Origin: Sphingomonas sp.
GTDB taxonomy: Bacteria; Pseudomonadota; Alphaproteobacteria; Sphingomonadales; Sphingomonadaceae
Assembly: GCA_042096015.1 (NCBI GenBank)
Contig: JBELMF010000001.1
Location: 1 to 43,433 of the forward strand
DNA: 43,433 nt
Direction: 5' to 3'
Below, piece by piece: positions 2,703 through 41,341 of the stretch (positions within the stretch are counted from its first letter, which is position 1; each line of letters opens with the position of its first letter). The position numbers were made by a program, and so were the translations under genes. The notes under the pieces are model-generated. The model saw only the letters and a list, made by a program, of their open reading frames with translations, ran no database searches and was not told where the DNA came from.

Positions 2703-2718
2703 CCCGACACTGGTATGG
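2703..2718. promoter_or_regulatory. Palindromic operator candidate CCCGAC-ACTG-GTATGG
   Basis: Degenerate copy of the recurring CCATAC-N4-GTATGG motif in the divergent racemase/dps intergenic region. Confidence 0.45.
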
Positions 2719-2914
2719 GATCGACGTCCGCGCGTCGTGGTGCCGCCGAACCGAGCCGGCACGGTGCGCGGCCAGACGACCAACGTCTGCCGGCACTCAA
2801 CCTCGGTGTGATGCCCGTGGTGGCCGTTCGACCCTATGAACGTCCCGACAGGCGCTCCGGTGCGGCGGATGCCAGTCCGACCAGGCGTCGAGCGCGCAAG
2901 GGAGCGAGGCCACG

Positions 2915-3442
2915 ATGAGACTTCTGAACCCCGACGACACGCGGTCCGACCGGTTCCTCGCGACCCCGAGCGATCTCGGAGCCGAGGCGGTACGCGACAT
3001 CTCGGCCGCGCTCGGCGCGCTGCTCGCGGACGCCTTCGCGCTCTACGTCAAGACCAAGAACTTCCACTGGCATATGAGCGGGCCGCACTTCCGCGACCAC
3101 CACCTGCTGCTGGACGAACAGGCCGGCGAGATCTTCGCGATGACCGATCCCATCGCCGAGCGGGCGCGCAAGATCGGCGGGCGGACGATCACGTCAATCT
3201 CCGACATCGCAGGACGCAAGCGGCTGCTGGACAACGACGCGCCCTACGTCGATCCGCAGGACATGCTGGCCGAACTGGACGGCGACAACCGGCAGATCGT
3301 CACCGAGATGCGGCGTACGCACGAGCTGTGCGGGGAGCACGCCGACGTAGCGACCGCCAGCCTGCTCGAGAACTGGATCGACGAGGGAGAACGGCGGGCC
3401 TGGTTCCTCTGGGAGACCGTGCGCAGCCACCGACGCGCCTAG
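2915..3442 (+). CDS. dps: Dps family DNA-protection/ferritin-like protein
   Basis: Motifs KTKNFHWHMSGPHFRDHHLLLDEQ, DPIAERARKIGG and ENWIDEGERRAWFL. Confidence 0.93.
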   Translation: MRLLNPDDTRSDRFLATPSDLGAEAVRDISAALGALLADAFALYVKTKNFHWHMSGPHFRDHHLLLDEQAGEIFAMTDPIAERARKIGGRTITSISDIAGRKRLLDNDAPYVDPQDMLAELDGDNRQIVTEMRRTHELCGEHADVATASLLENWIDEGERRAWFLWETVRSHRRA

Positions 3443-3494
3443 CTCGAAGCCCTCCCTGTCAGAAACGCAGCCACCACTAGGACCAGGAGCCCCC

Positions 3495-5204
3495 ATGACC
3501 CGAACCGTAGCAGATGTCATGATCGAGACCCTCGAGCAGGCGGGGGTCAGCCGCTGCTACGGCGTCCCCGGCGACACGCTCAACCACGTGACGGAGTCGA
3601 TCCGGCGCAGCGGCATCCGCTGGGTGCACGTCCGGCACGAGGAGGCGGGCGGCTTCGCCGCCGGTGCCGACGCCATGCTGACCGGGGAACTCGCGGCCTG
3701 TGCGGGATCGTGCGGCCCCGGCAGCCTGCACTTCATCAACGGCCTCTACGAGAGTCATCGCAATCGCGCGCCGGTCGTGCTCATCGCCAGCCAGATCGTG
3801 CGCGACGAGCTAGGCTTCGACTTCCCGCAGGAGGTCGACTTCAAGCAGGTCTACGCAGGATGCAGCGTCTTCTGCGAGGAGATCCGCACGCCCGAGCAGG
3901 CGCGCCGCAAGACGGCGATGGCCGCACAGGCTGCCCTCGCGAAGCGGGGCGTCGCCGTGCTGATCGTCCCCGCCGACGTCTCGTCCGCCAAGGCGGCGGA
4001 CGAGCCCGCGTTCGCCGTCCACCGCGCCTCGCCACGCGTGCTGCCGTCGATGGAGGAGCTCGCAAGCGCTGCCGCGCTGATCAACGCCGGCGAGCGCGTC
4101 GCAATATACGGCGGCTCCGGGTGCGAGGACGCGCACGATCAGGTCGTCGCGCTCGCCCGCGCCCTGCAGGCTCCCGTCGCCCACACCTCGCGCGCGAAGG
4201 ACTTCCTGGAGCACGACAACCCCCACGTGGTCGGAATGACCGGCGTGTTCGGCTCCGAGGCCGGCTTCCATGCCTTGATGGAGTGCGACACCCTGGTCCC
4301 GCTAGGCTGCGACTTCTGGCGGCAGTTCTATCCTTCCGGGGCGAAGATGATCCAGATCGACATCGACGGTACCCACCTCGGACGCCGCCACCCGGTCGAC
4401 CTCGGGATGGTCGGGACGGTGCGCGACACGCTCGATGCACTCATCCCCATGATCGAACTGCGTGACGCGACCGACTTCCTCGACGAGTGCCTTGCGCACC
4501 ACGAGCGCTCCGTCGTAGCCCAAGGCAGGCACGCACGCCGCGAGGACGGCCAGGCGATCCATCCGCAATACCTCACGCAGGTCATCGCCGCCCACGCGGC
4601 GCCCGACGCCGTCTACACGGGGGACGGCGGATCCCCGATGGTCTGGCTCCTGCGTCACGTTCCCTCTACCGGGCGGAACCGGACCGTCATCTCGCTGACC
4701 CATGGCACGATGGCGAACGCCATGCCCCAGGCCTTGGGCGCCAAAGCCGCCTATCCGGAGCGGCAGGTGATTTCGCTGTCGGGCGACGGCGGCATCGCCA
4801 TGCTGATCGGGGATCTCCTCACCGCGGTGCAGGAGAAGCTCGCCATCAAGGTCTGCATCTTCAACAACAGCTCGCTGGGCTTCGTGGAGCTCGAGCAGAA
4901 GGTCGAGGGACTCCTGGACAGCTACACCGATCTGCAGAACCCGGACTTCGCCGACGTGGCCCGCGCGATGGGCCTCTGGTCACGCCGAGTGGAGGAGAGC
5001 GGCGAGCTGGACGACGCCGTGCGTCAGTGGCTGGCCGAGCCGGGGCCCGCGCTGCTCGACGTCGTGACCGACCGCTACGAGCTCGCCATGCCGCCCAAGG
5101 TCGAGGCCAGACAGATCTTCGGGACGGCGCTGTATTCGGCCAAGGCAGTGCTGTCGGGCCGCGGCGCGGAGGTCGCCGGCCTCGTCAGGAACGCGATAAC
5201 CTGA
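3495..5204 (+). CDS. poxB: ThDP-dependent pyruvate dehydrogenase (quinone)/pyruvate oxidase
   Basis: GVPGDTLN, VRHEEAGGFAAGA, GSCGPGSLH, HGTMANAMPQALG and the ThDP motif GDGG..NN. RBS AGGAG. Confidence 0.88.
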   Translation: MTRTVADVMIETLEQAGVSRCYGVPGDTLNHVTESIRRSGIRWVHVRHEEAGGFAAGADAMLTGELAACAGSCGPGSLHFINGLYESHRNRAPVVLIASQIVRDELGFDFPQEVDFKQVYAGCSVFCEEIRTPEQARRKTAMAAQAALAKRGVAVLIVPADVSSAKAADEPAFAVHRASPRVLPSMEELASAAALINAGERVAIYGGSGCEDAHDQVVALARALQAPVAHTSRAKDFLEHDNPHVVGMTGVFGSEAGFHALMECDTLVPLGCDFWRQFYPSGAKMIQIDIDGTHLGRRHPVDLGMVGTVRDTLDALIPMIELRDATDFLDECLAHHERSVVAQGRHARREDGQAIHPQYLTQVIAAHAAPDAVYTGDGGSPMVWLLRHVPSTGRNRTVISLTHGTMANAMPQALGAKAAYPERQVISLSGDGGIAMLIGDLLTAVQEKLAIKVCIFNNSSLGFVELEQKVEGLLDSYTDLQNPDFADVARAMGLWSRRVEESGELDDAVRQWLAEPGPALLDVVTDRYELAMPPKVEARQIFGTALYSAKAVLSGRGAEVAGLVRNAIT

Positions 5205-5357: not shown

Positions 5358-6962
5358 TCACGCTCGTCTTCGAGCGAGAGGTAGACGGAAAGAGACGCAC
5401 GCACCGGAGAGGGTCGCGCTTCGTTCCAACTCCAGCGCCCCTCGATGCAGTTCGATTATGGACTGGCTGACGGCGAGGCCGAAGCCCCTCTGACCGGAAC
5501 GGCCGACACCCGGCCCACCCACGTCCTGGGCCATGACCTCAGCCATCCCCGGTCCGCTGTCGCTCACGGCGCAGCGGGCGAATCCATCCTGGACGTCGAC
5601 GACCACCTCGACGCGGCGCGAGTCACCACCCGACCGCTCCAACGCCTCGATGGCGTTCGTCACCAGGTTCACCACGACCTGCCCGATCTGGTTCCTGTCC
5701 ATGGCGACGAGGTCCTCGCCCGAACCCGATCTGAAGAAGATGGAAACGTCCGCCGCCCTCGCCTCGGCTTCCACGAGCGGCATTGCGGCCCCGACCACGG
5801 CGCCCAGGGACTCCGGACAGAGATCGGGAGCGTGGCTCCACGCCATCTCGCGTAGACGGTCTATGATGCCACTGGAGCGAACGGCGTAGGCGACCACGCG
5901 ATCGAGTGCCACGCGCGCCTCGTCGATCACAGGCTCGGACCGGTCCAGCCACCGGCGACCGGACATACCCGCCGCGACGATCGCGGCGAGAGGCTGGCTG
6001 ATCTCGTGTGCGAACCAGCCGGAAACCTCGCCGAGCAGCGAGAGCCTGTAGGACTGCGCGAACTGCGCCTGCAGCCTGATCAGATCCGCCTGCTCCGATA
6101 GCCGATCCCCGATGTCGACCATGCCGATGATGGAGGCGCGCCGTCCGTCCTCACGGACGCTCGCGCTCGCGAGGATCACCTCGCTGGTGCCGCCATCCAG
6201 ACGGCTGAGGCGGACCTGGCACTCCTGGTTCAGCCCCAGCACGCCCGCGGCGAGCGTCTCGGCGAAGCGCTCGGGGGTCTCGCGCCACGCGAAACCGACG
6301 GCCCGACCGACGAGATCGTCGGCGCTCCGGGCGCCCAGGATCCGGACGGCTTCGGAGTTCACCTCCTCGATCACGCAAAGTTCGGCCGCGCGCTCCACCA
6401 CGTCTGGGCGGCTGCGGAGCAGCGCCTGCACGTCCGCCCCCGGGCCTATGCCGAGGGACTCGTAGAAGGACGTGAGCCGGTCACCGTTCACGCGGCAGAG
6501 CCCGAGCGGCAGGTTGCGGAACAGCGAGTGCTGGGACGCCACCGCGTAGGACAGCCCCTCGACCACCGGCTCCAAGCCCCGCGCGTCAACGAACTGCGTA
6601 ATCAAAAGAACCCGCTCCCCACCGGGCCGCGCGAGACGCGCCGACAATATGCCCGGTACCGTCGTGCCGTCGAGCGTCTTGAGCTGGACTGACCGCCTGA
6701 TGCCGGCGCCGTCCGGTTCACCACTGAGAACGAGATCCGCGAGGTCGACCAAACACGCATGCGGCCAGATGGACGCAGGGGTCAGCACGTCGAGCCGATC
6801 CGAACGGACCTGGAGCAGTTCAACTGCGGCCCCGTTCAGCGATACGATGGACGCAGCGCCCAACTGCACCGCTGCCGACGCGGAACCACCAGCCGGCTGC
6901 TTCCCCCGCGCCGACGCCGACACCAGGTCCGTGACGTCGATCATGATGGCGGCGGCGGGCAT
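5358..6962 (-). CDS. Cytoplasmic PAS sensor histidine kinase
   Basis: ORF 5358..7094, probable start ATG 6962. H-box 'LLGEVSGWFAHEISQPLAA', N-box NLVTNAIEA, G1 DSGPGM, G2 GFGLAVSQSII. Confidence 0.88.
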   Translation of the reverse strand: MPAAAIMIDVTDLVSASARGKQPAGGSASAAVQLGAASIVSLNGAAVELLQVRSDRLDVLTPASIWPHACLVDLADLVLSGEPDGAGIRRSVQLKTLDGTTVPGILSARLARPGGERVLLITQFVDARGLEPVVEGLSYAVASQHSLFRNLPLGLCRVNGDRLTSFYESLGIGPGADVQALLRSRPDVVERAAELCVIEEVNSEAVRILGARSADDLVGRAVGFAWRETPERFAETLAAGVLGLNQECQVRLSRLDGGTSEVILASASVREDGRRASIIGMVDIGDRLSEQADLIRLQAQFAQSYRLSLLGEVSGWFAHEISQPLAAIVAAGMSGRRWLDRSEPVIDEARVALDRVVAYAVRSSGIIDRLREMAWSHAPDLCPESLGAVVGAAMPLVEAEARAADVSIFFRSGSGEDLVAMDRNQIGQVVVNLVTNAIEALERSGGDSRRVEVVVDVQDGFARCAVSDSGPGMAEVMAQDVGGPGVGRSGQRGFGLAVSQSIIELHRGALELERSATLSGACVSFRLPLARRRA

Positions 6963-7219
6963 CCCGTCTTCCACGAGGCGGGGTCCGGTCGGGCCGTTGT
7001 GAGAGGACGTCGGGTCATCCCTCCCCGAGCGGAAGGCGGGCCCGGGTTCCGCAGTCGACGCGGCACCCTCCGACGGTCGCCCCCTCGTCAGCATTGGACA
7101 ATCCGCACAGAAGTTCAGACCTCTCGTTCGGCGAGACCCTCGGCCTGCCCCCGCCGGACGGCTCCACGAATGGCCAGCGCCTATCCAACGAAGTTAGCGG
7201 CTGATCGGTGATCGCCATC

Positions 7220-7235
7220 CCATACACCGGTATGG
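7220..7235. promoter_or_regulatory. Palindromic operator candidate CCATAC-ACCG-GTATGG
   Basis: Perfect 6-4-6 palindrome upstream of kinase 5358..6962. Confidence 0.65.
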
Positions 7236-7328: not shown

Positions 7329-8036
7329 TCAGGATCGCGACTGACGGGCGCAGGCGCCAGAGGACCGCGGCTCAACCACGATCTGCGCGGGCCCTCCCGT
7401 CATCCCCGCCAGATCCTCTCCCCACATCAGGAACCGGGTACCCGGACTTCCAGTCTCCCACCGATGCCGCGCCCTGAGCTGGTGAGAGGTGACCTGGATG
7501 ATGTGCGAGCCAAGTCCCCGGGTGCCACCACCGTGGTGGTCCATGCCGACGCCATCGTCCTCCACCGTCAGGCTCCAGGCACCGGCTGGGTCGACCGAGA
7601 ACACCACCCTCACCTCCCCTGGCACATCGACACCGTAGGCGTGCTTGCAGGCGTTCCCGACGAGTTCGGTCACCAGGATGGCCACCGCGGCCGCATGCTC
7701 ATTCGCCAGGTCAAAGTGGTCAGCCCGCACACTGATCCTGCGCGCTTCGCCGCCGTCGGAGACGATGATGCGAAGCGAGTCCGCCAGTTCGTCGAGGAAC
7801 ACCCCGAGATCGACGGTGAGCGCGCTCGGCTCGCGGTAGAGGTGCCTGTGGACGTCGGCGACGGCACGGATCCGGCGCTGCGTCGCCGCGAGCACAGCGA
7901 CGGCCTCCGGATCCCGCACCGAGCGGCTGTCCAACTCGACGATGGCGGAGAGCAGGGCCAGGTTGTTCGCGATCCGGTGGTTCATCTCCGGCGCGGATCG
8001 GGCATCCTCGACGGATTGCAGCGGGCGTGGCGTCAT
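7329..8036 (-). CDS. HisKA_2-type histidine kinase without a sensor domain
   Basis: EMNHRIANNLALL H-box about 15 aa after the start (ATG 8036, GGAGAA upstream), then ELVGNACKHAY, DDGVG, GLGSHII. Confidence 0.85.
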   Translation of the reverse strand: MTPRPLQSVEDARSAPEMNHRIANNLALLSAIVELDSRSVRDPEAVAVLAATQRRIRAVADVHRHLYREPSALTVDLGVFLDELADSLRIIVSDGGEARRISVRADHFDLANEHAAAVAILVTELVGNACKHAYGVDVPGEVRVVFSVDPAGAWSLTVEDDGVGMDHHGGGTRGLGSHIIQVTSHQLRARHRWETGSPGTRFLMWGEDLAGMTGGPAQIVVEPRSSGACARQSRS

Positions 8037-8216
8037 CGTGCGTTCTCCGGTCACCCCGTCCGACGATCGATGGCCGCGTGCATTCGGCAACCACACCGGT
8101 TCGCACCGAGTAGCCACCGATGTCCGCGAACGAGACTGCCGAAGGGGCCTTGTTCACCTCGGGAACCCTAAGTGGCCCGCACGCCCGTTGGCACCGAGAC
8201 TCCCGGCTCGGGCGGA

Positions 8217-8232
8217 TCATACAATGGTATGT
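8217..8232. promoter_or_regulatory. Palindromic operator candidate TCATAC-AATG-GTATGT
   Basis: Motif copy upstream of the HisKA_2 kinase. Confidence 0.6.
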
Positions 8233-9938: not shown

Positions 9939-10331
9939 CTAAGGTCGCGCTCGCTCCGAAAGGACGCGTTCGATGCAGTCGATCAGCTCCGACGGATCGA
10001 AGGGCTTACGCATGAAGCAGCGCACGCCCTCCTCCCTCGCCTGACGCTCGACGTCCGCGCTGGGGAAGGCCGTGATGAGTATCACCGGCATCCGCCGCTC
10101 ACGAAGGAGACGCGCGAGCTCCAGACCGCTCGTGCCCGGCATCTGCACGTCGCTGATGACCAGCTCAAACGGCATATCAAGGTGCGGAATGAATTCGTCC
10201 GCGGAGGAGAAGGTGCGTCCGGCGAGGCCCATGCTGTCCACGAGGCTGAAAAGCGCCGCCGCCACGTCCTCGTCGTCATCGACGATCGCGATCAAGGAGG
10301 GATCCGAGTAGGTCGCGCTCAGTTCAACCAA
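9939..10331 (-). CDS. Single-domain response regulator (receiver only)
   Basis: IVDDD, ISDVQMPGTSG, ITAFP, RKPF. 130 aa with no output domain. Confidence 0.9.
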   Translation of the reverse strand: MVELSATYSDPSLIAIVDDDEDVAAALFSLVDSMGLAGRTFSSADEFIPHLDMPFELVISDVQMPGTSGLELARLLRERRMPVILITAFPSADVERQAREEGVRCFMRKPFDPSELIDCIERVLSERARP

Positions 10332-10449
10332 CGGATGGTCCTCTCAAAGCATCGACCATCCCGTGGCGGATCGACCTGGTTGAACAACACGCCGTCGGGC
10401 ATACCCGACGACAAATCAGACCCTAGACCGTCGTGCCGCCCCACCCGAC

Positions 10450-10465
10450 CTATACCGTGGTATTG
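10450..10465. promoter_or_regulatory. Palindromic operator candidate CTATAC-CGTG-GTATTG
   Basis: Motif copy upstream of the single-domain receiver/TrxB unit. Confidence 0.55.
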
Positions 10466-10579: not shown

Positions 10580-11794
10580 CTAGCCGGCCCGTCCGGGCGG
10601 CCTCATCAGGAGGAGCAACGGCAGGACGCTCAGCGCCAGACCAGTCCAAGCGACCGCGTTCCAGCCCCAATTCGACCAGAGCACCGGAGTGAGGAACGAG
10701 AGGGCACCGCCCCCAAGGAATGTCCCGGCCGAGTAGACCGCGTTCAGCCGCATGCGGATCTCAGGCGCTAGTCCATATAGCGCCGTCCTCAGCGTCACGT
10801 CCGTCCCGATCGCACCCACGCCGACCAGCACCATGCCCGTCAAGACGCCGACATAGCTCCGTGGCAGCAGAAGGAGCGCAAGCCAGCCCATCGCGGCGAC
10901 GACGAACGAGACGCGAACGGCCCGATCCGCCTCCAGCCTGTCCGCGAGCCGCCCCAGCCAGGGCGCTGCAAGCGCGGCGGTGACCGCCACCAGTGCCAGC
11001 ATCCCGATGGCGCGTGTGTCCAGCCCGAAGGGCGGCTGCTGCAGATGCAGGGTCAGCCCCACCCACAGCGCGTTGAAGCCACCGAAGCTCAACGCCTGGA
11101 GCAGCGTCGCCCGCCGGAGCTCCGGCTGACGACGCACCAGATCGACGAGGGATCGGAGGAGCACGCCATATCGCTCCTGCCGAAGACCGGGGGTCGCCGG
11201 CATGACGCGCGCCATGACACCTGCCATGGCGAAGGTGGCCAGCGCCGCCGCGGCGTAAACGACGCGCCAGCCGACCTCGTGTCCGGCGATCCCGGCCAGC
11301 GAGCGGCCCAGCATGATGCCGGTCAGGATGCCGGTCGCCAGCGCTCCGGTCACCGCGCCGCGCCGCGCGGGCGGGACCAGCCGGGTCGCAAAGGCCGGGA
11401 GGAGGTAGGTCACTATTCCGCAGACCCCCGCAATTAGGCATGCCGACATGAACAGGGCAGGTCTGCCCGTCACCGCCATGACCGTCATCGAGAGAGCCTG
11501 GGCGGTAAGGAGCAGCCTCACGATCCGCCGGTTGTCGATACGGTCGCCCAGCGGCAGCAGCAGGAGCATGCCGACCGCGATCCCCACCTGCGTCAGCGTC
11601 GGCACGACGCCCGCCATCGATCGCGGCATGCCCAGGTCGTGCCCGATCTCGATCAGCAGCGGCTGGCTGTAGTAGTTGTTCGCGACGCAGACCGCGCAGG
11701 CGATGCCGATCAGCACCAGCGTCAAGCGGCCGAGACGGTCCGCGGGTGGTATCGGCACGGTCACCGCCGGCACTGCCGCTACCGCCGAGCTCAT
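10580..11794 (-). CDS. MFS transporter
   Basis: About 12 hydrophobic segments, VANNYYSQPLL, LPLGDRIDNRR and GRLADR loop motifs. Overlaps the upstream stop (ATGA). Confidence 0.9.
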   Translation of the reverse strand: MSSAVAAVPAVTVPIPPADRLGRLTLVLIGIACAVCVANNYYSQPLLIEIGHDLGMPRSMAGVVPTLTQVGIAVGMLLLLPLGDRIDNRRIVRLLLTAQALSMTVMAVTGRPALFMSACLIAGVCGIVTYLLPAFATRLVPPARRGAVTGALATGILTGIMLGRSLAGIAGHEVGWRVVYAAAALATFAMAGVMARVMPATPGLRQERYGVLLRSLVDLVRRQPELRRATLLQALSFGGFNALWVGLTLHLQQPPFGLDTRAIGMLALVAVTAALAAPWLGRLADRLEADRAVRVSFVVAAMGWLALLLLPRSYVGVLTGMVLVGVGAIGTDVTLRTALYGLAPEIRMRLNAVYSAGTFLGGGALSFLTPVLWSNWGWNAVAWTGLALSVLPLLLLMRPPGRAG

Positions 11795-12672
11795 GCCGCC
11801 GTCCCCAACTCGATCGGGGTGACCAGCGGCGCGTAGCTGCTGGCCCGGGTGACGTCGACCATGGGGTTGGAGATGGCGTCATGGGCGAGCCCGACGATGC
11901 GACCCCCCTGGATCAGCGCCGGAACGTCGTGGCTCGGCAGCAGGAACCGGCTGGTCGCAAGCGCCTTCTTGATCGCCCGCTTCTCCTCCAGCGTGCTCAT
12001 CGCGCGGTTCGCCGTGATCGTCGGCTCGTGCGCCGCCTGGTCGAGGATCGGCTCGATGATCTGGTCCTGGAGGTTGTAGGCGATGTCGCCGCTGATGTTG
12101 GCGATGCCCTCGTCCGTCTCGACCAGCACGGAGATGGAGCCCGGCGTGTGGCCGCCCGACAGGCGCACCGCCACCCCCGGGATGACCTCCTCCTCGTAGG
12201 TGCCGTCCACGTCGAACAGGCGCAGGCTGCCCCGCGAGTGCAGGCGGTCGATCATGTGCTTGGTGTCCAGCGCGGTGAACATGCCGGGGCCCATGATCCC
12301 CGACACCATGAACTGAAGCTCCTGGCGCGACATGCTCACCTGCGTGGTGAGCGGAAAGGTGTGGTCCTGGCCGACATGGTCGAGGTGGCCGTGCGTATGC
12401 ACGATGTGCCGTATGTCCGAGCGCCTGAGCCCATGCACCGCGAGGTGATGATCGATGGTCATCTCCTCGGTCACCTCATAGGGCAGGCCGAACGCTTCGT
12501 ACTGCTCCAAGCTGCGCGAACCGGTATCGACGAGGATCGGCTCCGTGCCACCGAGGATGAGGAAGCCGAGCACGGGTATCGTCACCTGCACGCCGGGGTT
12601 GCGGAAGAGCACGAGGCCGCTCGCGTCGAGCGACATGTTGCCGAGGTTGATCGGATGTATCCTGAGGGACAT
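11791..12672 (-). CDS. Metallo-beta-lactamase-fold hydrolase, N-acyl homoserine lactonase-like
   Basis: LVDTG, HTHGHLDH (HxHxDH), GGHTPG, SGD, PSHD. Confidence 0.82.
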   Translation of the reverse strand: MSLRIHPINLGNMSLDASGLVLFRNPGVQVTIPVLGFLILGGTEPILVDTGSRSLEQYEAFGLPYEVTEEMTIDHHLAVHGLRRSDIRHIVHTHGHLDHVGQDHTFPLTTQVSMSRQELQFMVSGIMGPGMFTALDTKHMIDRLHSRGSLRLFDVDGTYEEEVIPGVAVRLSGGHTPGSISVLVETDEGIANISGDIAYNLQDQIIEPILDQAAHEPTITANRAMSTLEEKRAIKKALATSRFLLPSHDVPALIQGGRIVGLAHDAISNPMVDVTRASSYAPLVTPIELGTAA

Positions 12673-12828: not shown

Positions 12829-12844
12829 CCATACGATCGTGTGG
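12829..12844. promoter_or_regulatory. Palindromic operator candidate CCATAC-GATC-GTGTGG
   Basis: Motif copy upstream of the lactonase-MFS pair. Confidence 0.55.
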
Positions 12845-16978: not shown

Positions 16979-16994
16979 GCCTACGGAAGTATGG
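16979..16994. promoter_or_regulatory. Palindromic operator candidate GCCTAC-GGAA-GTATGG
   Basis: Motif copy upstream of the hypothetical-MDR-SDR operon. Confidence 0.55.
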
Positions 16995-17952: not shown

Positions 17953-17968
17953 GCATACCATGGTGTAG
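17953..17968. promoter_or_regulatory. Palindromic operator candidate GCATAC-CATG-GTGTAG
   Basis: Degenerate motif copy upstream of LysR 17003..17896. Confidence 0.4.
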
Positions 17969-18641: not shown

Positions 18642-19487
18642 CTATCGGCCCGCGGTGTCCAGCGCCGCGAACTCCTCGTCCGAGAGCGAGATGTCGAGCG
18701 CCCGGGCGTTATCCTCGAGGTGCGCGACCGACGTGGTGCCCGGGATCGGGAGAACGACCGGACTGCGGCGCAGCAGCCAGGCGATGGCGATCTGCCCCGG
18801 GCTGGCGCCGTGGCGCGCGGCGATGCGGTCCAGGAGCGAGCCGGGCTCGGTCAGCCTCCCCGCGGCGAGCGGGAACCAGGGGATGAACCCGATGCCGTTC
18901 GCCTCGCAATGGTCGAGCACCGCCTCGCTGCCGCGATCGGCGAGATTGTACCGGTTCTGCACCGTCGCCACCGGGAACACCGCCTGCGCCGCTTCGATGT
19001 CGTCGATCCCGACCTCGCTGAGGCCGGCGTGCCGGATCACCCCGGCGTCGATCAGCTGCCGGATGGCGGCGAACTGCTCGTCGCGGGGGACGCGCGGGTC
19101 GACGCGGTGCAGCTGCCACAGATCGATGCGCTCCACGCCAAGCGCCTGCCGGCTCCTCTCCGCCTGCGCGATGAGATAGTCGGGATCGCCGCGCGGAAGC
19201 CACTGGTCGGGTCCGGGTCGGGTCAGCCCGGCCTTGGTGGCGATGTGCAGTCCGGGCGGATAGGGAAACAGCGCCTCGCGGATCAGCGGTTCGGATACGT
19301 CGGGGCCGTAGCTGTCCGCCGTGTCGATCAGGGTGATGCCGAGCTCCGGCACACGGCGCAGCGTCGCCAGAGCCGCCTCGCGGTCGCGCGGCGGACCCCA
19401 GATGCCCGGCCCGGCTAGGCGCATTGCGCCATAACCCAGACGCGACACCGACATGTCGCCGCCGATCGAGAAGGTCGTCGAGATCAT
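18642..19487 (-). CDS. Aldo/keto reductase
   Basis: [51 protein letters not shown]. Start ATG 19487 after GAGGAG. Confidence 0.92.
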
Positions 19488-19498
19488 GGTTTCGCTCC

Positions 19499-20905
19499 TC
19501 ACGCCGCCAGCTTGGCGTTCAGGATGCGCAGCTGGGTGAAGTCCTTCATCCCCTCGATCCCGTTCTGAAGGCCGATGCCCGATTCCTTTGCGCCCCCGAA
19601 GGGCACATCGAGCGGCAGGGCCATGTGCTGGTTCACCCAGATCGTCCCCGTCTCGATCCGGCCCGCGACCTCGATCCCGCGCCGCACGTCGCCCGTCCAG
19701 ATGGTGCCGCCGAGCCCGTACTCCACGTCGTTCGCCTGGGCGATGGCGTCGTCGAGATCGTCATAGACTTGGATCGGCAGCACCGGCCCGAACTGCTCCT
19801 CGCGCACGATACGGGCGTCATTGGGCAGACCGGTCACGATCGCCGGCGCGATGAAGTAGCCGTGGCCGGTCGGATCGCCGCCGCACAGGAACGTGCCGCC
19901 CTCCTCGCGGGCCGAGGCGATGTAGCCCAGCACCTTGTCATACTGCATCCTGTTCTGCAGCGGCCCCATGGTGGTCGCCGGGTCCATGCCGTCGCCCAGC
20001 ACCGCCGAGACGGCGCGCCTGGCCAACGCCGCGGCGAGATGATCCGCGATCGCCCGCGGGGCGTAGACCCGCTTGGTCGCGTAGCAGACCTGCCCGGCGT
20101 TGATGAACGCGGCGGCGTAGATCCGATCGGCCGCCCATTCCACGTCCACGTCGTCCAGCACGATCGCGGCATCGTTGCCGCCGAGTTCGAGGGTGAAGCG
20201 CTTCAGGGTGTCGGCCGCCGAGGTCAGCACCTTCTTTCCGGTCGGCGTCGAGCCCGTGAAGCTGACGTGCGCGACATCCGGGTGCCCGGAAAGGAGCGCT
20301 CCCAGGTCGTTCGCGTCCACCAGCGTCTGGAACACTCCGGCGGGGAAGATGTCCGTGGCGATCTCGCCGAGGATCAGCGTGGCGAGCGGCGTGGTCGGGG
20401 CGGGCTTGGCGATAACGGTGTTGCCGGTGATGAGCGCCGGTCCCAGCTTGAACGAGAGCAGCGTCATCGGACGGTTCCACGGCATAATCGCGACCACCAC
20501 GCCCTGCGGATAGTGCTGCTCGACGATCAGTTCGTGCCCGTTCTCCCGGATCACCCGGTCGTCGATGCGCTGCGAGGCGAAGTGACGGATGGCATCGGTC
20601 GCGCGGGCCACCTCGAAGCGGCAGTCGGAGATCGGCCCTCCGCGCTCGCGGGTCAGCGTCTCCGCGAGGCGCTCGGCATTCTGCGCCATCGCGTCGGCGA
20701 ACCGCTCGAGATACGGGCGGCGCCCGTCATAGCCGAGCGCCGCCCATCCCGCCTGCGCACGGCGGGCGGCCGCTATCGCCGCCTCCGCCTGCGTCACGCT
20801 GGCACGCGGAGCCTGGGCGAACGCCTCTGCGTTGGTCGGATCGATCACGTCCATCGAGTGGGCGCCATCGGTCAGCGCGCCGTCGATCAGCAGACGGTAG
20901 GTCAT
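19499..20905 (-). CDS. NAD(P)-dependent aldehyde dehydrogenase
   Basis: [24 protein letters not shown] (catalytic Cys), EEQFGP. Confidence 0.93.
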
Positions 20906-21786: not shown

Positions 21787-21793
21787 TTGACCC

Positions 21794-22426: not shown

Positions 22427-22439
22427 GGCGATCGTCCCG

Positions 22440-23534: not shown

Positions 23535-23619
23535 GCCATCTCGTCCCTGATCGGATCGGCACACCGGGGGGGTGGCCGCGTCAGGCTCCGAAGATGACGT
23601 TCCCGCCGGAACGGGGTAG

Positions 23620-23635
23620 CCCTACCCCGGTATGG
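23620..23635. promoter_or_regulatory. Palindromic operator candidate CCCTAC-CCCG-GTATGG
   Basis: Motif copy in the divergent ADH/response regulator promoter. Confidence 0.6.
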
Positions 23636-23676: not shown

Positions 23677-23692
23677 CCATACCGAAGTATGC
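23677..23692. promoter_or_regulatory. Palindromic operator candidate CCATAC-CGAA-GTATGC
   Basis: Second motif copy upstream of the response regulator. Confidence 0.62.
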
Positions 23693-23740: not shown

Positions 23741-24412
23741 ATGCTAGCACTGCGCAGGGAGGCCGCGTTGTCGACACAGCCGAAGACGGCCGCCCCCGGC
23801 GGCGGAGCAGATGTGCCGACCGTGCTCGTGGTCGACGACGATCCCGACATCCGTGCCAGCCTCACCGACATGTTCGACTCCGTGGGCATGCGGACGAAGG
23901 TCTACGCCGCGACCGCCGACATGCTCAACGACACGCTGCCGGAGGGGCCGAGCTGCCTCGTGCTGGACCTCCGCCTGCCGGGTTCGAGCGGCCTGGAGCT
24001 CCAGACCCAGCTGGCGAGCCGAGGGATCGACATCCCCATCATCTTCATCACCGGCCATGCCGACGTGCCGACCTCGGTCCGCGCGATGAAGGCGGGTGCG
24101 CTCGACTTCCTCTCCAAGCCGTTCCGGGAACAGGAGCTGCTGGATGCCGTCGCCGACGCTCTGCGGCGAGACGGCGACCGCCGCCAGGCGCATCGCGAGC
24201 GGGACACCGTGCGCCTTCTCGCGCAGCAGCTGACGGTGCGCGAGACCGACGTCCTGAAGGGTGTGGCCCGCGGCCTCCTCAACAAGCAGATCGCCTTCGA
24301 GCTCGGCATCACCGAGGTGACGGTCAAGATGCACCGTTCGAGCGCCGGGCGTAAGCTGAAGTCCGTCTCCGTCGCCGACATGATCCGGAAGATCGAGCTT
24401 CTCGACCTCTGA
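23741..24412 (+). CDS. FixJ/NodW/StyR-type response regulator (REC + LuxR HTH)
   Basis: VVDDD, CLVLDLRLPGSSG, FITGHADVPTSVRAMKAGA, GLLNKQIAFELGITEVTVKMHR. Start is ATG 23741 or TTG 23768. Confidence 0.93.
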   Translation: MLALRREAALSTQPKTAAPGGGADVPTVLVVDDDPDIRASLTDMFDSVGMRTKVYAATADMLNDTLPEGPSCLVLDLRLPGSSGLELQTQLASRGIDIPIIFITGHADVPTSVRAMKAGALDFLSKPFREQELLDAVADALRRDGDRRQAHRERDTVRLLAQQLTVRETDVLKGVARGLLNKQIAFELGITEVTVKMHRSSAGRKLKSVSVADMIRKIELLDL

Positions 24413-24534: not shown

Positions 24535-24550
24535 CCATACCGCGGTATGT
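24535..24550. promoter_or_regulatory. Palindromic operator candidate CCATAC-CGCG-GTATGT
   Basis: Motif copy about 50 bp upstream of the 2Fe-2S subunit start. Confidence 0.62.
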
Positions 24551-24601: not shown

Positions 24602-25057
24602 ATGGTTGCGATCACGGTCAATGGACAACGACGAGAGACCGAGGTGGACGGCGACACGCCGCTCCTGTGGGTGCTCCGCGACGCGCTGGGGATGACCGGT
24701 ACGAAGTTCGGCTGCGGCATCGCCCAGTGCGGTGCCTGCACCGTGCATGTCGACGGCGTCGCCGTCCGATCCTGCCGTCTGCCGCTGAGCGCCATCGGCG
24801 ACCGGGCGATCACGACGATCGAAGGCGTGGGCGGATCCGACGTCGGTTCGCGGGTGCAACGGGCGTGGCTCGACCTGGAGGTCATCCAGTGCGGCTACTG
24901 CCAGTCGGGCCAGATCATGGCGGCGGCTGCGCTCCTGGCGGCGAACCCGGCGCCGGACGATGCAGCCATCGACGCTGCGATGTCGGGGAACATCTGCCGC
25001 TGCGGCACCTACGTGCGCATCCGCGAAGGCATCAAGCGGGCCGCCACCCGTGGCTAA
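24602..25057 (+). CDS. (2Fe-2S)-binding small subunit of an IorA/CoxS-like molybdo-enzyme
   Basis: [47 protein letters not shown]. Confidence 0.93.
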
Positions 25058-27206
25058 GGCCGCGCTCACCCGCCGCGACGCGCTACGCGCCGGTGCGATC
25101 GGCGGGGCCATGCTCCTCCTGGGCGTCAACCTGCGGACCGCCAGCATCGCCGCGGTGCCGGATCCGTCACGCGCGGCCTTCGCCCCGGACGCCTTCATCC
25201 GCATCGCGCGCGACGGCCGGGCCACGCTCATCATGCCGCAGACCGAGATGGGCCAGGGGATCTACACGGGCCTGTCGATGCTGATCGCCGAGGAGCTGGA
25301 CCTGCCGCTCGAAGGCGTGACGTTGGAGGCCGCCCCGGCCAGCGATGCCCTCTACGGCAATCCGGTCTTCAAGGTGCAGGCGACCGGCGGCTCCACATCG
25401 ATGCGCGGCTATTGGCTGCCCCTGCGCACTGCCGGCGCCAGTGCGAGGGCGATGCTGGTGTCCGCCGCCGCGCGGCGCTGGCGCGTCGATCCGGCCACCT
25501 GCCGCACGCGAGGAGGCGAGGTCATCCACGACGCGAGCGGGCGTCGCGCGGGATACGGATCCCTCGCCGCCGCCGCGATGCGCGAGACGCCGCCCGCCAA
25601 GCCCGAGCTCAAGAGCCCTCAGCAGTTCCGCCTGATCGGCCGCTCCCAACATCGCCTGGACACGCCAGCGAAGACGGACGGATCGCTCCGCTACGGCATC
25701 GACGCCATGCCCGAGGGGGTCCGTTTCGCCAGCCTCCTGTGCGCGCCGGTCACCGGCGGCAAGGTTGCTAAGGTGGACGACACGCAGGCGCGCGGTCTTC
25801 CCGGCGTGCGGCAGGTCATCGTCCTCGATGATCTCGTCGCGGTCGTCGGCGAGACGAGCTGGGCGGCGATGCGCGCGCTGGCGGCGCTGGAGGTTGAGTG
25901 GCACGATGGCGCGTTCGGCGCCCTCTCCACCCGGACCTTGCGCGACGCGCTCCAGGATGCGGGTCGTTCCGAAGGCACGGTCGCCGTGGACACCGGCGCC
26001 GGGCCGAAGCTGGACGGCGACGACGTCCTGACCGAGTTCTACGAACTGCCACTCCTCGCGCACGCGCCGATGGAGCCGATGAACTGCACGGTCCACGTCA
26101 CGCCGGGACGTTGCGAGGTCTGGGTCGGCACGCAGGTCATGACCATGGCGCAGCGCGCCGCCGCCGAGGAGGCTGGCCTCGCGCCCGAGCAGGTCATCGT
26201 CCACAACCATCTGATCGGCGGCGGCTTCGGCCGCCGGCTGGAGGTCGATGGCATCCGCAAGGCCGTCCGCATCGCCGCCCATGTCGATGGCCCGGTGAAG
26301 GTCGTCTGGTCGCGCGAGGAGGACATCGCCCGCGCGCCCTACCGCTCGGTCTACGGCTCCTGGATGCGCGCGCGGGTGGAGGACGGCAAGCCCGTCGCCT
26401 GGGGGCACAAGGTCGCAGGACCCACGGTCGTCGGCCGCTGGCTGCCGCCCGCCTTCGACGGGAAGATCGACATGGACGCGGTCGACGGCGCTGCCGAGAC
26501 GCCATACGACTTCCCCGCATCCTACGTCACTTGGGTGCGCCACGAACCGCGCGGGATCACCACTGCGTTCTGGCGCGGCGTCGGTCCGAACATGAACGTC
26601 TTTGCGACCGAGAGCTTCGTCGACCGCGTCGCACGCGAAGCCGGTCGCGAACCGCTAGAGTTCCGCCGCAGCCTGATCGGCAAGCACCAGCGCGCCCGCG
26701 CGGTGCTCGACATCGCGGCAGCCAAGGCCGATTGGGGTGCCCCGCTGCCGCCGCGGCACGGCCGCGGGATCAGCCTGCAATACGCCTTCGGCACCTACCT
26801 CTGCACCGTCGCTGAGGTCGCGGTCGGCGATGACGGCGCTGTGCGGGTGCTGCGCATGACGACAGCCGTGGACTGCGGCACGCCCGTCAACCCCGACGGC
26901 ATCGTCTCGCAGATCCAGGGCGGACTCGTCTTCGGTCTCTCGGCGGCGCTGCACGGCCGGATCACGATCGCGAACGGCCGGACGGAGCAGAGTAACTTCC
27001 ACGACTATCGCGTCGTCCGCATGGACGAGGCGCCGAGGATCGAGGTCCATGTCGTCCGTAACGCGGAGGTCCCCGGCGGCATCGGCGAACCCGGCACCGT
27101 CTCGGTCCAGGCCGCCGTCGCGAACGCGATCTACGCCGCCACGGGCGTGCACCTCACCCGGATGCCGATCGACACCGCCCTGCTCGCCAAGGGAGCCGAC
27201 GCATGA
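25050..27206 (+). CDS. Molybdopterin-binding large subunit (IorB/aldehyde oxidoreductase-like) with twin-arginine-like N-terminus
   Basis: GTG start overlapping the upstream gene. [42 protein letters not shown]. Confidence 0.9.
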
Positions 27207-28537
27207 CCCGGCCGGGTTCGAGCCGGCTGGCCTTCCTCGCCGCCGCGCTCGTCTTCGGCGGCGTGCTCGCCTGGCGGCTCCTGCTCCTGCCCGACGCCCT
27301 GGCGTTCGCAGGGGGGACCCGCGTCGCGCTCGCGGACTATGCCGGCCCGCCGGTCGGCGGCGTTCCGCAGGAACTCGCCGGCGCGGACCCGCTCACCAAG
27401 GGGCGCTACCTCACCGAAGCCGCGGACTGCGCCGCCTGCCACACGGCGAAGGGTGGCCGGCCGTTCGCCGGAGGGCGGCCGTTCAAGCTCCCGTTCGGCA
27501 CCATCTACACGCCGAACATCACACCCGACCGGGTCACCGGCATCGGCGCCTGGACCGACGCCGAGTTCCTCCGTGCGGTGCACAACGGGATCAGGCGCGG
27601 CGGGGAGCGGCTCTATCCGGCCTTCCCCTACGCCTCCTACACGTTGCTGACCGACGACGACGTCCTGTCCATCCGGCGCTACCTCGCATCGCTGCCGGCG
27701 GTGAGTCAGCGCAACCTGCCGAACACCTTCGCCTTTCCGTTCAACCAGCGCTGGCTGATGTCGGTGTGGGGCGCCTTCTTCAATCCGGGCAAGCGCTTCG
27801 AGCCGATTGCGGAACGCAGCCCGACCTGGAATCGCGGCGCCTACCTCGTGGAGGCCGCCGGCCACTGCGGCGAGTGCCACACCCCGCGCACGCTGATGCA
27901 GGCGATGGATACGCGCCGCAAGTTCGCCGGCGGCCAGGCCGAGGGCTGGAACGCCTACAACATCACCGGAGACCGTCTCAGCGGCATTGGCGAATGGTCG
28001 GACGCGGAAGTCGCGCAGTATCTCGCCAAGGGACACGCGCCCGGTCGCGGCGTCGCCTCCGGACCGATGGCCGAGGCGGTCGAGCTCAGCACCAGCAGGA
28101 TGTCGCCATCGGACATCCAGGCGATGGTCGCCTACCTGCGCACCGTCCCCGCTGTCCGGACCAAGGCATCGCCGAAGATGGCGGGCCCCGCACCGGCGGT
28201 CGCCTCGGCGGGCCCGATGGGCAACGAGCTGGGCAAGCGCATCTTCGAGGGCGCCTGCGCGAGCTGCCACGCCTGGAGCGGACGCGGCGCGATCACCGCC
28301 GACCAGCAGCTGACGGGCAACCGCGCGGTCAACGACGCGACGGCGGCGAACGTCGCCATGATGATCCTGAACGGCACCGGCGGCTCGCCCGAACATGCCA
28401 GAGCCTACATGCCTGCCTTCCGCGGCGCCTATACCGACGCGGAGATCGCGGCCGTCGCCAACTACATCACCGCCCGCTTCGGGGCGAAGCCCTCACGCGT
28501 GACCGCCGCCCACGTCAAGCGGATGCGCGAGGAATGA
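27203..28537 (+). CDS. Tri-heme cytochrome c subunit (membrane-bound dehydrogenase type)
   Basis: Three CxxCH motifs (CAACH, CGECH, CASCH), N-terminal hydrophobic anchor, YTPNITPD, LYPAFPY. Confidence 0.92.
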   Translation: MTRPGSSRLAFLAAALVFGGVLAWRLLLLPDALAFAGGTRVALADYAGPPVGGVPQELAGADPLTKGRYLTEAADCAACHTAKGGRPFAGGRPFKLPFGTIYTPNITPDRVTGIGAWTDAEFLRAVHNGIRRGGERLYPAFPYASYTLLTDDDVLSIRRYLASLPAVSQRNLPNTFAFPFNQRWLMSVWGAFFNPGKRFEPIAERSPTWNRGAYLVEAAGHCGECHTPRTLMQAMDTRRKFAGGQAEGWNAYNITGDRLSGIGEWSDAEVAQYLAKGHAPGRGVASGPMAEAVELSTSRMSPSDIQAMVAYLRTVPAVRTKASPKMAGPAPAVASAGPMGNELGKRIFEGACASCHAWSGRGAITADQQLTGNRAVNDATAANVAMMILNGTGGSPEHARAYMPAFRGAYTDAEIAAVANYITARFGAKPSRVTAAHVKRMREE

Positions 28538-28559
28538 TCCAAGAGAAGGAGTACCACCG

Positions 28560-28907
28560 ATGCACATGATGGACTGGAACGGATATCGCGACCAGGTTCT
28601 TGCCGGCGTGGGCGGCCTCGGCAAACTGACCCCTGACACCACCCGCGGCTATGCGACGCTGAGCGGCGCGGGCGCGAAGACGGGACACCTCGACGCGAAG
28701 ACCCGCGAGCTGATCGCGATCGCCTGCGCGATCACCCTGCGGTGCGACGGGTGCATCACCGTGCACACGAAGGCGGCACGCGATGCGGGTGCCACCGAGG
28801 AGGAGCTCGCCGAGGCGCTGGGCGTCGCCATCGCCCTCAACGCCGGCGCGGGCCTTGTCTATTCCACCCGCGCGATGGACGCCTTCTCGGCGTCCGGCGA
28901 ACTCTGA
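28560..28907 (+). CDS. Carboxymuconolactone decarboxylase/AhpD-like protein
   Basis: LDAKTRELIAIACAITLRCDGCITVH. RBS AAGGAG. Confidence 0.88.
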   Translation: MHMMDWNGYRDQVLAGVGGLGKLTPDTTRGYATLSGAGAKTGHLDAKTRELIAIACAITLRCDGCITVHTKAARDAGATEEELAEALGVAIALNAGAGLVYSTRAMDAFSASGEL

Positions 28908-33035: not shown

Positions 33036-33044
33036 GGTGGCCTT

Positions 33045-38528: not shown

Positions 38529-38573
38529 GTATGGGAGCCCACGCACCCATGCGCGCGCGTATGGCGGCCATAC
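38529..38573. promoter_or_regulatory. Cluster of GTATGG/CCATAC half-sites
   Basis: GTATGG at 38529 and 38559 and CCATAC at 38568, upstream of the second yellow/MRJP gene. Confidence 0.4.
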
Positions 38574-39719: not shown

Positions 39720-40447
39720 GCACCATTCGCGTCGGACACATCGACCTGGGTTTCCACGATGCGAGTGCGCTCGAGGTCGAGGCCGTGCTCCGGCGGCACG
39801 GCCACACGATCGAGCGCTCGGCAGCCCCGCACGAGGAGATGTTCCGCCGCATGGGGCGGGCCGAGATCGATGTCCTTGTCTCGGCCTGGCTCCCCGCGAG
39901 CCACGGCGCCTATCTCGCGCCCTTCGAGAACGACGTCCGTAAGGTCACCGTCCTCTACGAGCCCTACTGCATCTGGGGCGTGCCCGACTACGTCCCGGAC
40001 GAGGTCGCATCGGTATCGGACCTGCTTCGGGAGCCGGCGCTGTCGCGCATGGGCCGGCTGATCCAGGGCATAAATCCTGGTGCCGGAATCAGCCGCTTCT
40101 CGCGCACGATCGTCGAGCATTACGGCCTGGCGGATGCGGGCTACCACTTCGAAACCGGCACGGAGGCGCAGTGCTTCGATCGTTTCGAGGCGGCGGTGGC
40201 GGAGGGCCGCTGGGTCGTCCTGCCGCTGTGGCACCCGCAGTACCTGCACGCGCGCCACCGCATCCGCGAACTGGCGGAGCCGGCCGGCCTGCTCGGCGGC
40301 ACCGACCAGGCGACGGTGATCGTGCGCCGGGACTGCGAGGAGCGCGTCGGTGCCGCGGCACTGGCGGAACTCGGCGGCCTGACGCTCGGCAACCAGCGCG
40401 TCAGCGAGCTGGAGGACAGCCTCGTCCGTTCCCGCGTCGTCGACTAG
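39716..40447 (+). CDS. Glycine betaine/OpuAC-type substrate-binding domain protein (orphan)
   Basis: ATG 39716 overlaps the upstream stop. SAWLPASH, LYEPYCIWGVPDYVP, GINPGAGIS, PLWHPQYL. Confidence 0.78.
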   Translation: MSTIRVGHIDLGFHDASALEVEAVLRRHGHTIERSAAPHEEMFRRMGRAEIDVLVSAWLPASHGAYLAPFENDVRKVTVLYEPYCIWGVPDYVPDEVASVSDLLREPALSRMGRLIQGINPGAGISRFSRTIVEHYGLADAGYHFETGTEAQCFDRFEAAVAEGRWVVLPLWHPQYLHARHRIRELAEPAGLLGGTDQATVIVRRDCEERVGAAALAELGGLTLGNQRVSELEDSLVRSRVVD

Positions 40448-41277
40448 GCGTCGAGGAAAAGGCGCGCGTGCTCGAGGAAGAGCTCCGGGTGCTGGAACTG
40501 CGCCGCGTGACCCGCATCCGGATAGATGATCAACTGGGCATCGGGGATGTGCTGCTGAAGATGGAACGAGTTCACCGTCGGCAGCATCACGTCGCGCGTT
40601 CCGTTCACGACCAGGGTGGGAACGGTGATCGCCGCGAGATCCGCGAAGCGCTCGCCATGCGGCTCCGCCCAATCGCGCCCGGCCAGCGCCTGCGCCATGA
40701 TCCCCGCCTGCGCCGTCGGTGGATCCCTGTCTTCGGTACGAGCCATGCGTCGTTCCCAAAAGGCGCGGCCCGCCGCCCGGCCGGTCTCCGAATGTCCGAA
40801 GAACAGCCACACGAAGTCGTCCTGGCTGGCGCTGCCGGTGGCACGCTTGCGCACCTCGTCGATGTAGGGAGAGGGTTCACCACCTCGCGGGCTGGTACCG
40901 CAGAGGATCAGGCGACCGAGCCTTGCGGAGTTGGCCTTGGCGAACGCCTGCGCGACCATCCCGCCGATCGAGAACCCCAGCAGATCGAACGTTTCAAGTC
41001 CGATCGCGTCCACGAACGCGAGGATGGTGGCCGCCATGCCCTCGATCGTCTGCGGCGTGGCGCCCGTCGACCCGCCAATACCGGGAACGTCGACGAGGAT
41101 CACTTCGCGGCCCTTCGCCAACCCGTCCGTCAGGAGCGGATCCCAATGATCCATGCCGCCGGTGAAGTGCTGGAGCAGGACGATGGGCCGTGTGCCTTCG
41201 CGCCCGAAGCGCCGGTACGCGAACGTATCCTCACCGGCGGTAACATTCAGGGTCGGCGCGGTGCGATGGCTGTCCAT
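40444..41277 (-). CDS. Alpha/beta hydrolase
   Basis: Start MDSHRT at 41277 (AAGGAG RBS). LQHFTG, GFSIGG (nucleophile elbow), YPDAGHAAQFQ. Confidence 0.9.
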   Translation of the reverse strand: MDSHRTAPTLNVTAGEDTFAYRRFGREGTRPIVLLQHFTGGMDHWDPLLTDGLAKGREVILVDVPGIGGSTGATPQTIEGMAATILAFVDAIGLETFDLLGFSIGGMVAQAFAKANSARLGRLILCGTSPRGGEPSPYIDEVRKRATGSASQDDFVWLFFGHSETGRAAGRAFWERRMARTEDRDPPTAQAGIMAQALAGRDWAEPHGERFADLAAITVPTLVVNGTRDVMLPTVNSFHLQQHIPDAQLIIYPDAGHAAQFQHPELFLEHARLFLDA

Positions 41278-41325
41278 GTTCTTCTCCTTTCGCGTCAACT
41301 GGCGACTGGGAAGGCATCGGGCGAT

Positions 41326-41341
41326 ATGTACCTTGGTAGTG
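41326..41341. promoter_or_regulatory. Palindromic operator candidate ATGTAC-CTTG-GTAGTG
   Basis: TAC-N4-GTA core in the divergent hydrolase/kinase intergenic region. Confidence 0.42.

Follow-up and report, generated by a model that had tools for sequence, protein, structure and literature searches.

A conserved intergenic palindrome with a predicted StyR/NodW-type reader in a Sphingomonas gene island, and a candidate counterpart at bradyrhizobial nodulation genes

Known StyR- and NodW-type systems and the Sphingomonas regulator

The closest described relatives of the system considered here are the two-component pairs StyS/StyR, TodS/TodT and TmoS/TmoT of Pseudomonas, the bradyrhizobial pairs NodV/NodW and NwsA/NwsB and, more distantly, FixL/FixJ. 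The binding site of StyR is the STY box ATAAAC-N4-GTTTAT, as printed in the part of the source available to us (PMC5874301) and as found in the StyR plasmid locus of P. putida S12. StyR has an activating site near -40 and represses via STY1 and STY3, according to the accessible portion of PMC2442086. Mung bean, cowpea and siratro cannot be nodulated without NodW, extra NwsB replaces NodW, and nodD1, nolK, noeL and noeI are listed as NodW-dependent genes without a nod box; the excerpts of the same 2017 review state that the interaction of NodW with nod-box promoters "remains to be clarified" (PMC5793154). No description of a NodW binding site was found in the portions of the full-text literature searched. 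In this work, a palindrome with the core ATAC-N4-GTAT was analysed in a stretch of 43,433 nucleotides from Sphingomonas sp. (hereafter the window), which is the entire contig C1 of a 3.39-Mb assembly that is 88.86% complete. An earlier note on this DNA had proposed that the 6-4-6 palindrome CCATAC-N4-GTATGG precedes most transcription units of the island and is the operator of the response regulator encoded at 23741..24412 on the plus strand. The excerpts of full-text literature covered, a body without logo-only motifs (e.g., the P. aeruginosa DNA affinity purification sequencing figure in PMC8599809), subscription papers and motif databases, contain no description of CCATAC/ATAC-N4-GTAT.

The window regulator, the predicted reader of the motif, combines a receiver with a LuxR-type helix-turn-helix domain, and its recognition helix ITEVTVKMHRS is of the E[IV]TxK type of the StyR/NodW clade. 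It was the sole StyR/NodW-type regulator found in the assembly, and its closest named homologues belong to Sphingomonadaceae. StyR is its best solved relative (1yio, E 3.7e-54), with 48% identity to StyR of P. putida S12. The likeness to StyR-type systems extends to the 6-4-6 geometry, the A.AC-N4-GT.T frame, a predicted activating site near -40, multiple sites per promoter and the type of kinase H-box. On the other hand, the window core is ATAC-N4-GTAT, not the AAAC-type core of the StyR/TodT consensus, and its outer bases are loose pyrimidines. The helix reads KMHRS where StyR has KVHRH, so that of the StyR residues K175, V176 and H179 only K is kept, while V is replaced by M and H by S. Moreover, the last site lies 23-25 nucleotides before the -10 box as against 21 for StyR, and the motif occurs at many promoters, including those of its own signalling genes, rather than at one catabolic operon. 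A perfect STY-type box is present elsewhere in this genome (C97:1925); as an operator it was set aside because it lies within a coding region, and it is probably due to chance.

A quick tree placed StyR outside a 35-row subclade (Shimodaira-Hasegawa-like approximate likelihood ratio test, SH-aLRT, 93) which holds the window regulator together with bradyrhizobial regulators, including those of two kinase-regulator-receiver clusters of the nodA-bearing genome G757 (52% and 49% identity). The label NodVW-like for such clusters comes from gene context and from plasmid annotations of similar proteins. The window regulator is not an orthologue of NodW (52% identity to the NodVW-like regulator of G757), no nod gene family was found among the window proteins scanned, and the bradyrhizobial sites are mostly hybrids of the form AAAC-N4-GTAT, in contrast to the window core. 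The architecture of receiver plus LuxR-type domain is also that of FixJ, and the window regulator scores 165.1 bits on the NCBIfam FixJ model NF006900; however, this is below the cut-off of 255, the FixJ helix is of the xxRTVE type, and the core was present in 0 of 52 FixJ-type and other outgroup loci. The locus has several features of a FixJ/NarL-family operator system, namely the regulator type just described, an inverted repeat with a fixed 4-bp spacer and a nearby kinase with a FixL/StyS/NodV-type H-box. The mechanism is ordinary; taken by itself, the island offers a sound prediction of a regulon that would work in a familiar way.

The palindrome in the window and across its regulator clade

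The palindrome is a real, conserved intergenic element. At up to two mismatches, CCATAC-N4-GTATGG has 9 sites in the window against a mean of 0.50 in dinucleotide shuffles (maximum 3; 0 of 100 reached 9), and all 5 sites with up to one mismatch in the 3.39-Mb assembly lie inside the window. The 27 two-mismatch matches outside it represent background, because other spacers give 24-41 matches genome-wide. The spacer is indeed fixed, with 9 window matches at 4 bp compared with 0-3 at each other spacer from 0 to 12, and the eleven 16-mers quoted in the earlier note are all present letter for letter. By scoring with a weight matrix trained on other loci, without the window, matches of at least 14 bits were found at 16 per 100 kb in the window and 0.27 per 100 kb elsewhere in the genome. 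A comparison of coding with intergenic DNA, which the note had called for, placed 7 of 7 matches of at least 13 bits and 8 of 9 of at least 10 bits in intergenic DNA (p about 5e-8), which makes up 9% of the window bases on a gene map drawn by hand. The sole coding match of at least 10 bits is at 22573 (12.1 bits), inside the alcohol dehydrogenase (ADH) gene.

Some parts of the original proposal had to be narrowed. The strict 6-4-6 CCATAC box gives way to a conserved core ATAC-N4-GTAT with loose outer bases. Among the 11 proposed operators, the sites at 7220, 8217, 10450, 12829, 17953, 23677 and 24535 are strong (15-20 bits) and that at 23620 reaches 10.1 bits, whereas those at 16979 (9.2 bits), 2703 and 41326 (7.5 bits each) are within the range of noise. 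In the cluster at 38529-38573 half-sites are present, but there is no 4-spaced palindrome and the best pairing has a 6-bp spacer. To place the sites in front of "most" transcription units was an overstatement, as 24.6-38.5 kb holds no promoter-linked 4-spaced site (up to 3 mismatches or above 7 bits).

In three orthologous regions (G070, G165 and G153; 75-87% protein identity), the sites 5' of the regulator gene and of iorA align as identity islands in diverged gaps. The footprint of the receiver site is kept in G070 and G165, and the plasmid loci L160 and L161 both have the regulator and receiver sites, to which L160 adds those of iorA and the HisKA_2 kinase gene; at the cNMP-TrxB gene no site was seen in four orthologous loci. 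Related islands sit on plasmids, beside insertion sequence elements, as might be expected if the copies were relics of a repeat, insertion targets or methylation sites with no regulatory role. However, among the compared copies the core is conserved amid variable spacers and flanks, the sites keep phase with -10-like boxes, and an Rfam search of the window gave no match; we find such an origin barely credible. The window also holds two LysR genes and one AraC gene, and AraC genes follow 6 sites in related loci, which would suit one of these regulators, or a global regulator of the host, as the reader. Both LysR genes are nevertheless absent from all three orthologous regions and the AraC gene from two, yet the sites persist there, and a global regulator is made less likely by the background level elsewhere in the genome, so a reader of this kind seems very improbable. 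The regulator at 23741..24412 is the only window transcription factor common to the three regions. Its orthologues are patchy, being found in 3 of 300 family genomes (75-86%), 2 of 120 same-genus genomes (68-75%) and two Novosphingobium plasmids, and the island is therefore an accessory module. Neither of these two plasmids, NZ_CP128493.1 and NZ_CP030354.1, which carry the loci L160 and L161, encodes a clade member besides the orthologue; 4 of 5 exact sites on one plasmid and 5 of 6 on the other are no farther than about 46 kb from its gene.

The motif also follows the regulator clade. Eighty loci were fetched by regulator similarity, 26 with the helix xE[IV]T[VAI]K, 52 with other FixJ-family regulators and 2 unclassified, and an unbiased scan of them returned ATAC-N4-GTAT as the top palindrome. 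It had 32 copies in 16 of the 26 clade loci and none in the 52 others, while AAAC-N4-GTTT had no copy in the 26 clade loci. In a quick tree of 129 regulators, nearly all site-bearing loci fell in one 74-row group (SH-aLRT 95). Matrix matches at 14 bits were present in 67 of 77 clade loci as against 4 of 55 outgroup loci, a count in which most of the 77 had served in training and one miss, L166, was excluded; in held-out plasmid loci a match was found in 6 of 7. Furthermore, among 120 same-genus held-out genomes the exact site occurred in 20 of the 30 with a clade regulator and in 27 of the 90 without (p 4e-4), and 14 of the 26 exact sites in the regulator-bearing genomes lie within 12 kb of the regulator gene, where at most 0.26 were expected. 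Of 34 matches in eight plasmid loci with annotation, three of which had served in training, 29 are intergenic, where intergenic DNA accounts for 16% of the sequence; the gene tables leave out pseudogenes. As a positive control, the P. putida S12 StyR locus gave the published box as ATAAAC-CATG-GTTTAT with TAGCTT 21 nucleotides on; the method is therefore right for a known member. As an amendment to the original proposal, the predicted operator is clade-wide and not island-specific.

Two further arrangements were observed in related loci. A sister subclade with the helix KLHRS had appeared to lack the motif; this was overturned when the matrix found a conserved one-mismatch site behind the regulator gene in most of 14 loci. 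In L121, L122, L127, L128, L129, L130, L132, L133, L135 and L139 it is a single asymmetric site that follows the regulator gene at about 25-45 bp and frequently precedes the single receiver. A Pantoea plasmid (L168:19888-19935) carries three back-to-back sites with 16-bp spacing between hydrolase and amidohydrolase genes, a different array geometry.

Promoter geometry, individual sites and neighbouring genes

By scanning 162 de-duplicated gene-facing flanks for TAnnnT, in distance windows chosen after inspection of the data, starts of the hexamer at 23-25, 44-46 and 65-67 nucleotides after the site were counted 17, 14 and 12 times against 4.1, 3.7 and 3.1 expected. It almost never starts at 33-35 or 54-56 nucleotides, smaller peaks occur at 16-17 and 37-39, and weaker second sites peak at +21 and +42/43. 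The pattern suggests tandem dimers in 21-bp steps with the last centred near -44, and sites were found upstream of the -35 region at a fixed phase to the predicted -10 box. In the window, the sites at 7220, 10450 and 8217 fit this phasing with TAnnnT and those at 24535, 23620 and 17953 with CAnnnT only, whereas 12829 does not fit. We hypothesize that the regulator, phosphorylated by one or more of the three window kinases with FixL/StyS/NodV-type H-boxes (HK1-HK3), would bind the palindrome as a dimer that is centred near -44 and adjoins the -35 region; this dimer would stand by itself or close an array whose stronger sites lie 21 or 42 bp upstream. It would thereby activate sigma-70 promoters of its own gene, the kinases, the single-domain receiver and several redox/detoxification operons. 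The outcome would be a positive-feedback loop together with cargo genes whose products would act on small reactive alcohols, aldehydes or aromatics by oxidation, reduction or conjugation. The regulator might instead act mainly as a repressor, or with mixed sign, for which the STY1 and STY3 sites of StyR offer a precedent; there are only 48 bp between the site at 23677 and the likely start of the regulator, and a phased -10 box is missing at several window sites. Against this, the clade-wide phasing sets the last site just upstream of -35, as for StyR activation, and a predominantly repressing or mixed-sign regulator is decidedly unlikely.

Several points weigh against the palindrome being read by this regulator, the choice of the above distance windows after data inspection being one. 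Of the 8 better window sites, only 3 have a clean TAnnnT at a phased distance, the real matrix yielded 170 matches where permuted versions reached as many as 107 (mean 25), and the held-out plasmid locus L166 had no matrix match. The matches in 27 of 90 regulator-negative genomes are at about the control rate, of 22 family genomes that encode a clade regulator 7 have no exact YATAC-N4-GTATR, and genomes that are related do not count as independent. As M and S stand here in place of V176 and H179 of StyR, sequence recognition cannot be deduced from StyR. Moreover, the assembly is 88.86% complete and the island runs off both contig ends, which truncate HK1 and HK3; the main reader could therefore be a paralogue that the assembly lacks. 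In that case a same-clade protein, whether its gene lies past the contig ends or is otherwise absent from the assembly, would read the site, and the neighbouring regulator would be a target or a minor reader. The genomes G070, G165 and G153 carry 2-6 clade or FixJ-like paralogues, and the site is common to the whole clade; since clade members share it, paralogues would cross-activate each other's promoters. However, a single clade member was found in this assembly, and the two Novosphingobium plasmids (plasmid sequences only) keep most exact sites near an orthologue that is their only clade member. We regard a paralogue as the main reader as unlikely. The co-occurrence of the motif with the clade, and the presence of this one window transcription factor in all three orthologous regions, support the earlier assignment, and the palindrome is, with good confidence, the predicted operator of the regulator at 23741..24412.

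The candidate operator at 23677..23692 (16.5 bits) lies between this regulator gene, which is predicted to be autoregulated, and a predicted target operon on the minus strand (18642..23564) encoding a Zn-dependent ADH, a glutathione S-transferase (GST), an alpha/beta hydrolase, an aldehyde dehydrogenase (ALDH) and an aldo-keto reductase. The same divergent gap holds a weaker second candidate at 23620..23635 (10.1 bits) with CATCTT 23 nucleotides beyond on the ADH side, and the corresponding gap of G153 has a second site too. The site at 24535..24550 (15.1 bits) precedes a predicted target operon on the plus strand (24602..28907) for a 2Fe-2S subunit, a molybdopterin enzyme, a cytochrome c and a CMD-family protein, with a conserved hexamer CACC(G/T/C)T (24575-24580) 24 nucleotides beyond. 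The perfect match at 7220..7235 (15.8 bits) stands 5' of the gene for PAS kinase HK2, with a predicted -10 box TAACTT (7191-7196, minus strand) 23 nucleotides beyond, and that at 10450..10465 (17.8 bits) stands 5' of the single-domain receiver gene (9939..10331, minus), with TAGGGT (10420-10425, minus) 24 nucleotides beyond. This receiver has 43% identity to the receiver adjoining the NodVW-like pair of G757. The site at 8217..8232 (20.4 bits; predicted -10 box TAGGGT at 8165-8170, minus, 46 nucleotides beyond) lies 5' of a HisKA_2/HWE-type kinase gene (7329..8117, minus), with a counterpart also 5' of the orthologue in L160; this kinase has a different H-box, is a predicted target and not a predicted partner, and probably belongs to another pathway. 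The site at 12829..12844 (16.1 bits) is placed 5' of a predicted target operon (10580..12672, minus) for a metallo-beta-lactamase-fold lactonase and a major facilitator superfamily transporter; no matching -10 box was found for it, and it was not seen 5' of the single orthologue tested (L036). The site at 17953..17968 (15.5 bits; 3 mismatches to CCATAC-N4-GTATGG) is 5' of a LysR gene on the minus strand, and its target is uncertain.

The weak candidates are those at 2703..2718 (7.5 bits), between an enolase-superfamily gene and dps-poxB, at 16979..16994 (9.2 bits), 5' of a hypothetical gene and a Zn-dehydrogenase gene, and at 41326..41341 (7.5 bits), between an alpha/beta hydrolase gene (abh2) and the gene for HK3. 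In related loci, a strong site is present 5' of 1 of 2 dps homologues and a 15.5-bit site at 1 of 2 orthologues of this hydrolase. Of the single stress/detox regulon put forward originally, the HK2, receiver, lactonase, ADH-GST-ALDH and Mo-enzyme members are predicted targets with strong sites; the weakness of the sites at dps/poxB and HK3/abh2 means that the regulon probably has fewer members than first suggested. Its stress/detox purpose we infer from gene names, as we do a detoxification role in the related loci; the window also contains many oxidoreductases and hydrolases.

The PAS kinases HK1 (3..1586, minus; H-box HEVSQPL) and HK3 (41385..43433, plus; HELNQPI) are cut by the contig ends and HK2 is encoded at 5358..7094 (minus; HEISQPL). 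In comparison with TodS-type hybrid kinases, which have two autokinase domains, HK2 has a single transmitter and the other two are truncated, and the window has no sty or tod operon. All three share a PAS-like domain with an unusual insert (twice in HK1) and no Pfam match, which is likely a sensor or dimerisation module. Upstream of HK1, an enolase-superfamily (mandelate racemase-like) gene at 1674-2627 is truncated, its tail overlapping a short unrelated frame. Located 3' of the half-site cluster, a gene at 38632-39719 resembles the MRJP-family gene at 31902-33035 and reads across a frameshift and an in-frame stop; it is either a pseudogene or an assembly error.

In the related loci, 185 open reading frames (ORFs) 3' of sites were picked heuristically, and a scan of 140 of them assigned a Pfam family to 85. 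Signalling proteins make up 46 of the 85 (21 single receivers, 14 regulators and 11 kinases or sensors), a class that is inflated because the loci were centred on regulators. The others include 10 alpha/beta hydrolases, 6 AraC proteins, 4 metallo-beta-lactamase folds and 4 short-chain dehydrogenases/reductases, with single cases such as catalase, OsmC, DJ-1 and DoxX. It looks as if autoregulation of signalling genes is the constant core and enzymes are the variable cargo.

The element at bradyrhizobial nodulation genes

Bradyrhizobium sp. 62B has an 859-kb symbiotic plasmid with a single exact site, which is situated between nodD and nodA. A set of 33 loci was assembled from three named Bradyrhizobium plasmids and 30 nodA loci from the genus of G644, the latter being the best 30 of 52 matches in 47 of 151 genomes. 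A 15-20-bit site between nod box and nodA was present in 31 of these 33 bradyrhizobial-type loci, mostly as AAAC-N4-GTAT and usually 186-250 bp past the nod box; the misses are L185 (a short contig) and L208. No site was found in 66 kb of sequence downstream of the nodA loci or at 7 nodA promoters of Sinorhizobium, Rhizobium, Neorhizobium, Mesorhizobium and Paraburkholderia, and a class-wide NodA search found no true nodA genome. Across 27 distinct copies of the element the 8 core bases are 98% identical, compared with 40% for the 40 bp upstream, although the bradyrhizobial nod loci have a common origin and might amount to a single event. The mean scores are highest at offsets 0, +21, +31 and +42, usually as a triple array in 21-bp steps, and TAnnnT follows 66 nucleotides on, i.e. 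24 nucleotides after the third site, in 22 of 27 copies. The candidate array is thus defined as 58 bp with three sites and a predicted -10 box 24 nucleotides after the third. In an alternative register, a second site with a 5-bp spacer stands at +31 with the -10 box at 37 nucleotides and scores about equal to the +42 site; two plasmid copies have a single site without an array.

In Bradyrhizobium sp. 187, the ORF between site and nodA (L177:2546-2968, at the position of nodY/nodK) encodes an intact receiver domain (PF00072, E 8.6e-13) with 37% identity to the receiver adjoining the NodVW-like pair of G757. At the same position, decaying-looking receivers were observed in L214, L186-L188, L195-L197, L184 and L204. 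A receiver fragment also lies upstream of nodA in Paraburkholderia sprentiae (L245:918-1565), where the site is absent.

In G757, the element is found at both kinase-regulator-receiver clusters, between nodD and nodA, and in the gmd/glmS gap, while three other nod boxes have no site. The gap site and the start of gmd are 678 bp apart and the pattern downstream of the site points to glmS, so the link to noeL-type genes is loose. An island-wide NodW regulon was considered for this genome and found unsupported, as 360 kb around the nod genes gave 7 matrix matches against a permuted mean of 5.9. The top-scoring site among those fetched from G757 (L221, G757:C1:5962891; 21.6 bits) is followed by a nod-array-like stretch beside a malic enzyme gene, far from the nod genes.

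The element between nod box and nodA is a candidate NodW/NwsB site. From these comparisons of sequence, we consider it somewhat probable that regulators throughout the NodW-like clade in alpha-, beta- and gamma-proteobacteria have A(T/A)AC-N4-GTAT as their common operator, and that bradyrhizobial nodABC came under NodW via a captured cassette. This cassette would have been captured about 190-250 bp downstream of the nod box and would comprise three sites spaced by 21 bp, together with a second promoter and the gene of a single-domain receiver, a gene that may since have decayed into nodY/nodK.

The motif may serve as a sequence tag for a large, almost uncharacterised regulator clade (at least 4,615 proteins at E up to 1e-50 among 8,000 scored; 360 plasmid records), and the targets of clade regulators would therefore become predictable. 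If the cassette proposal is true, it supplies the binding site of NodW and a NodD-independent nod promoter. A site common to NodW and NwsB would also explain why extra NwsB replaces NodW, and the old question of how NodW acts at nod promoters would become directly testable.

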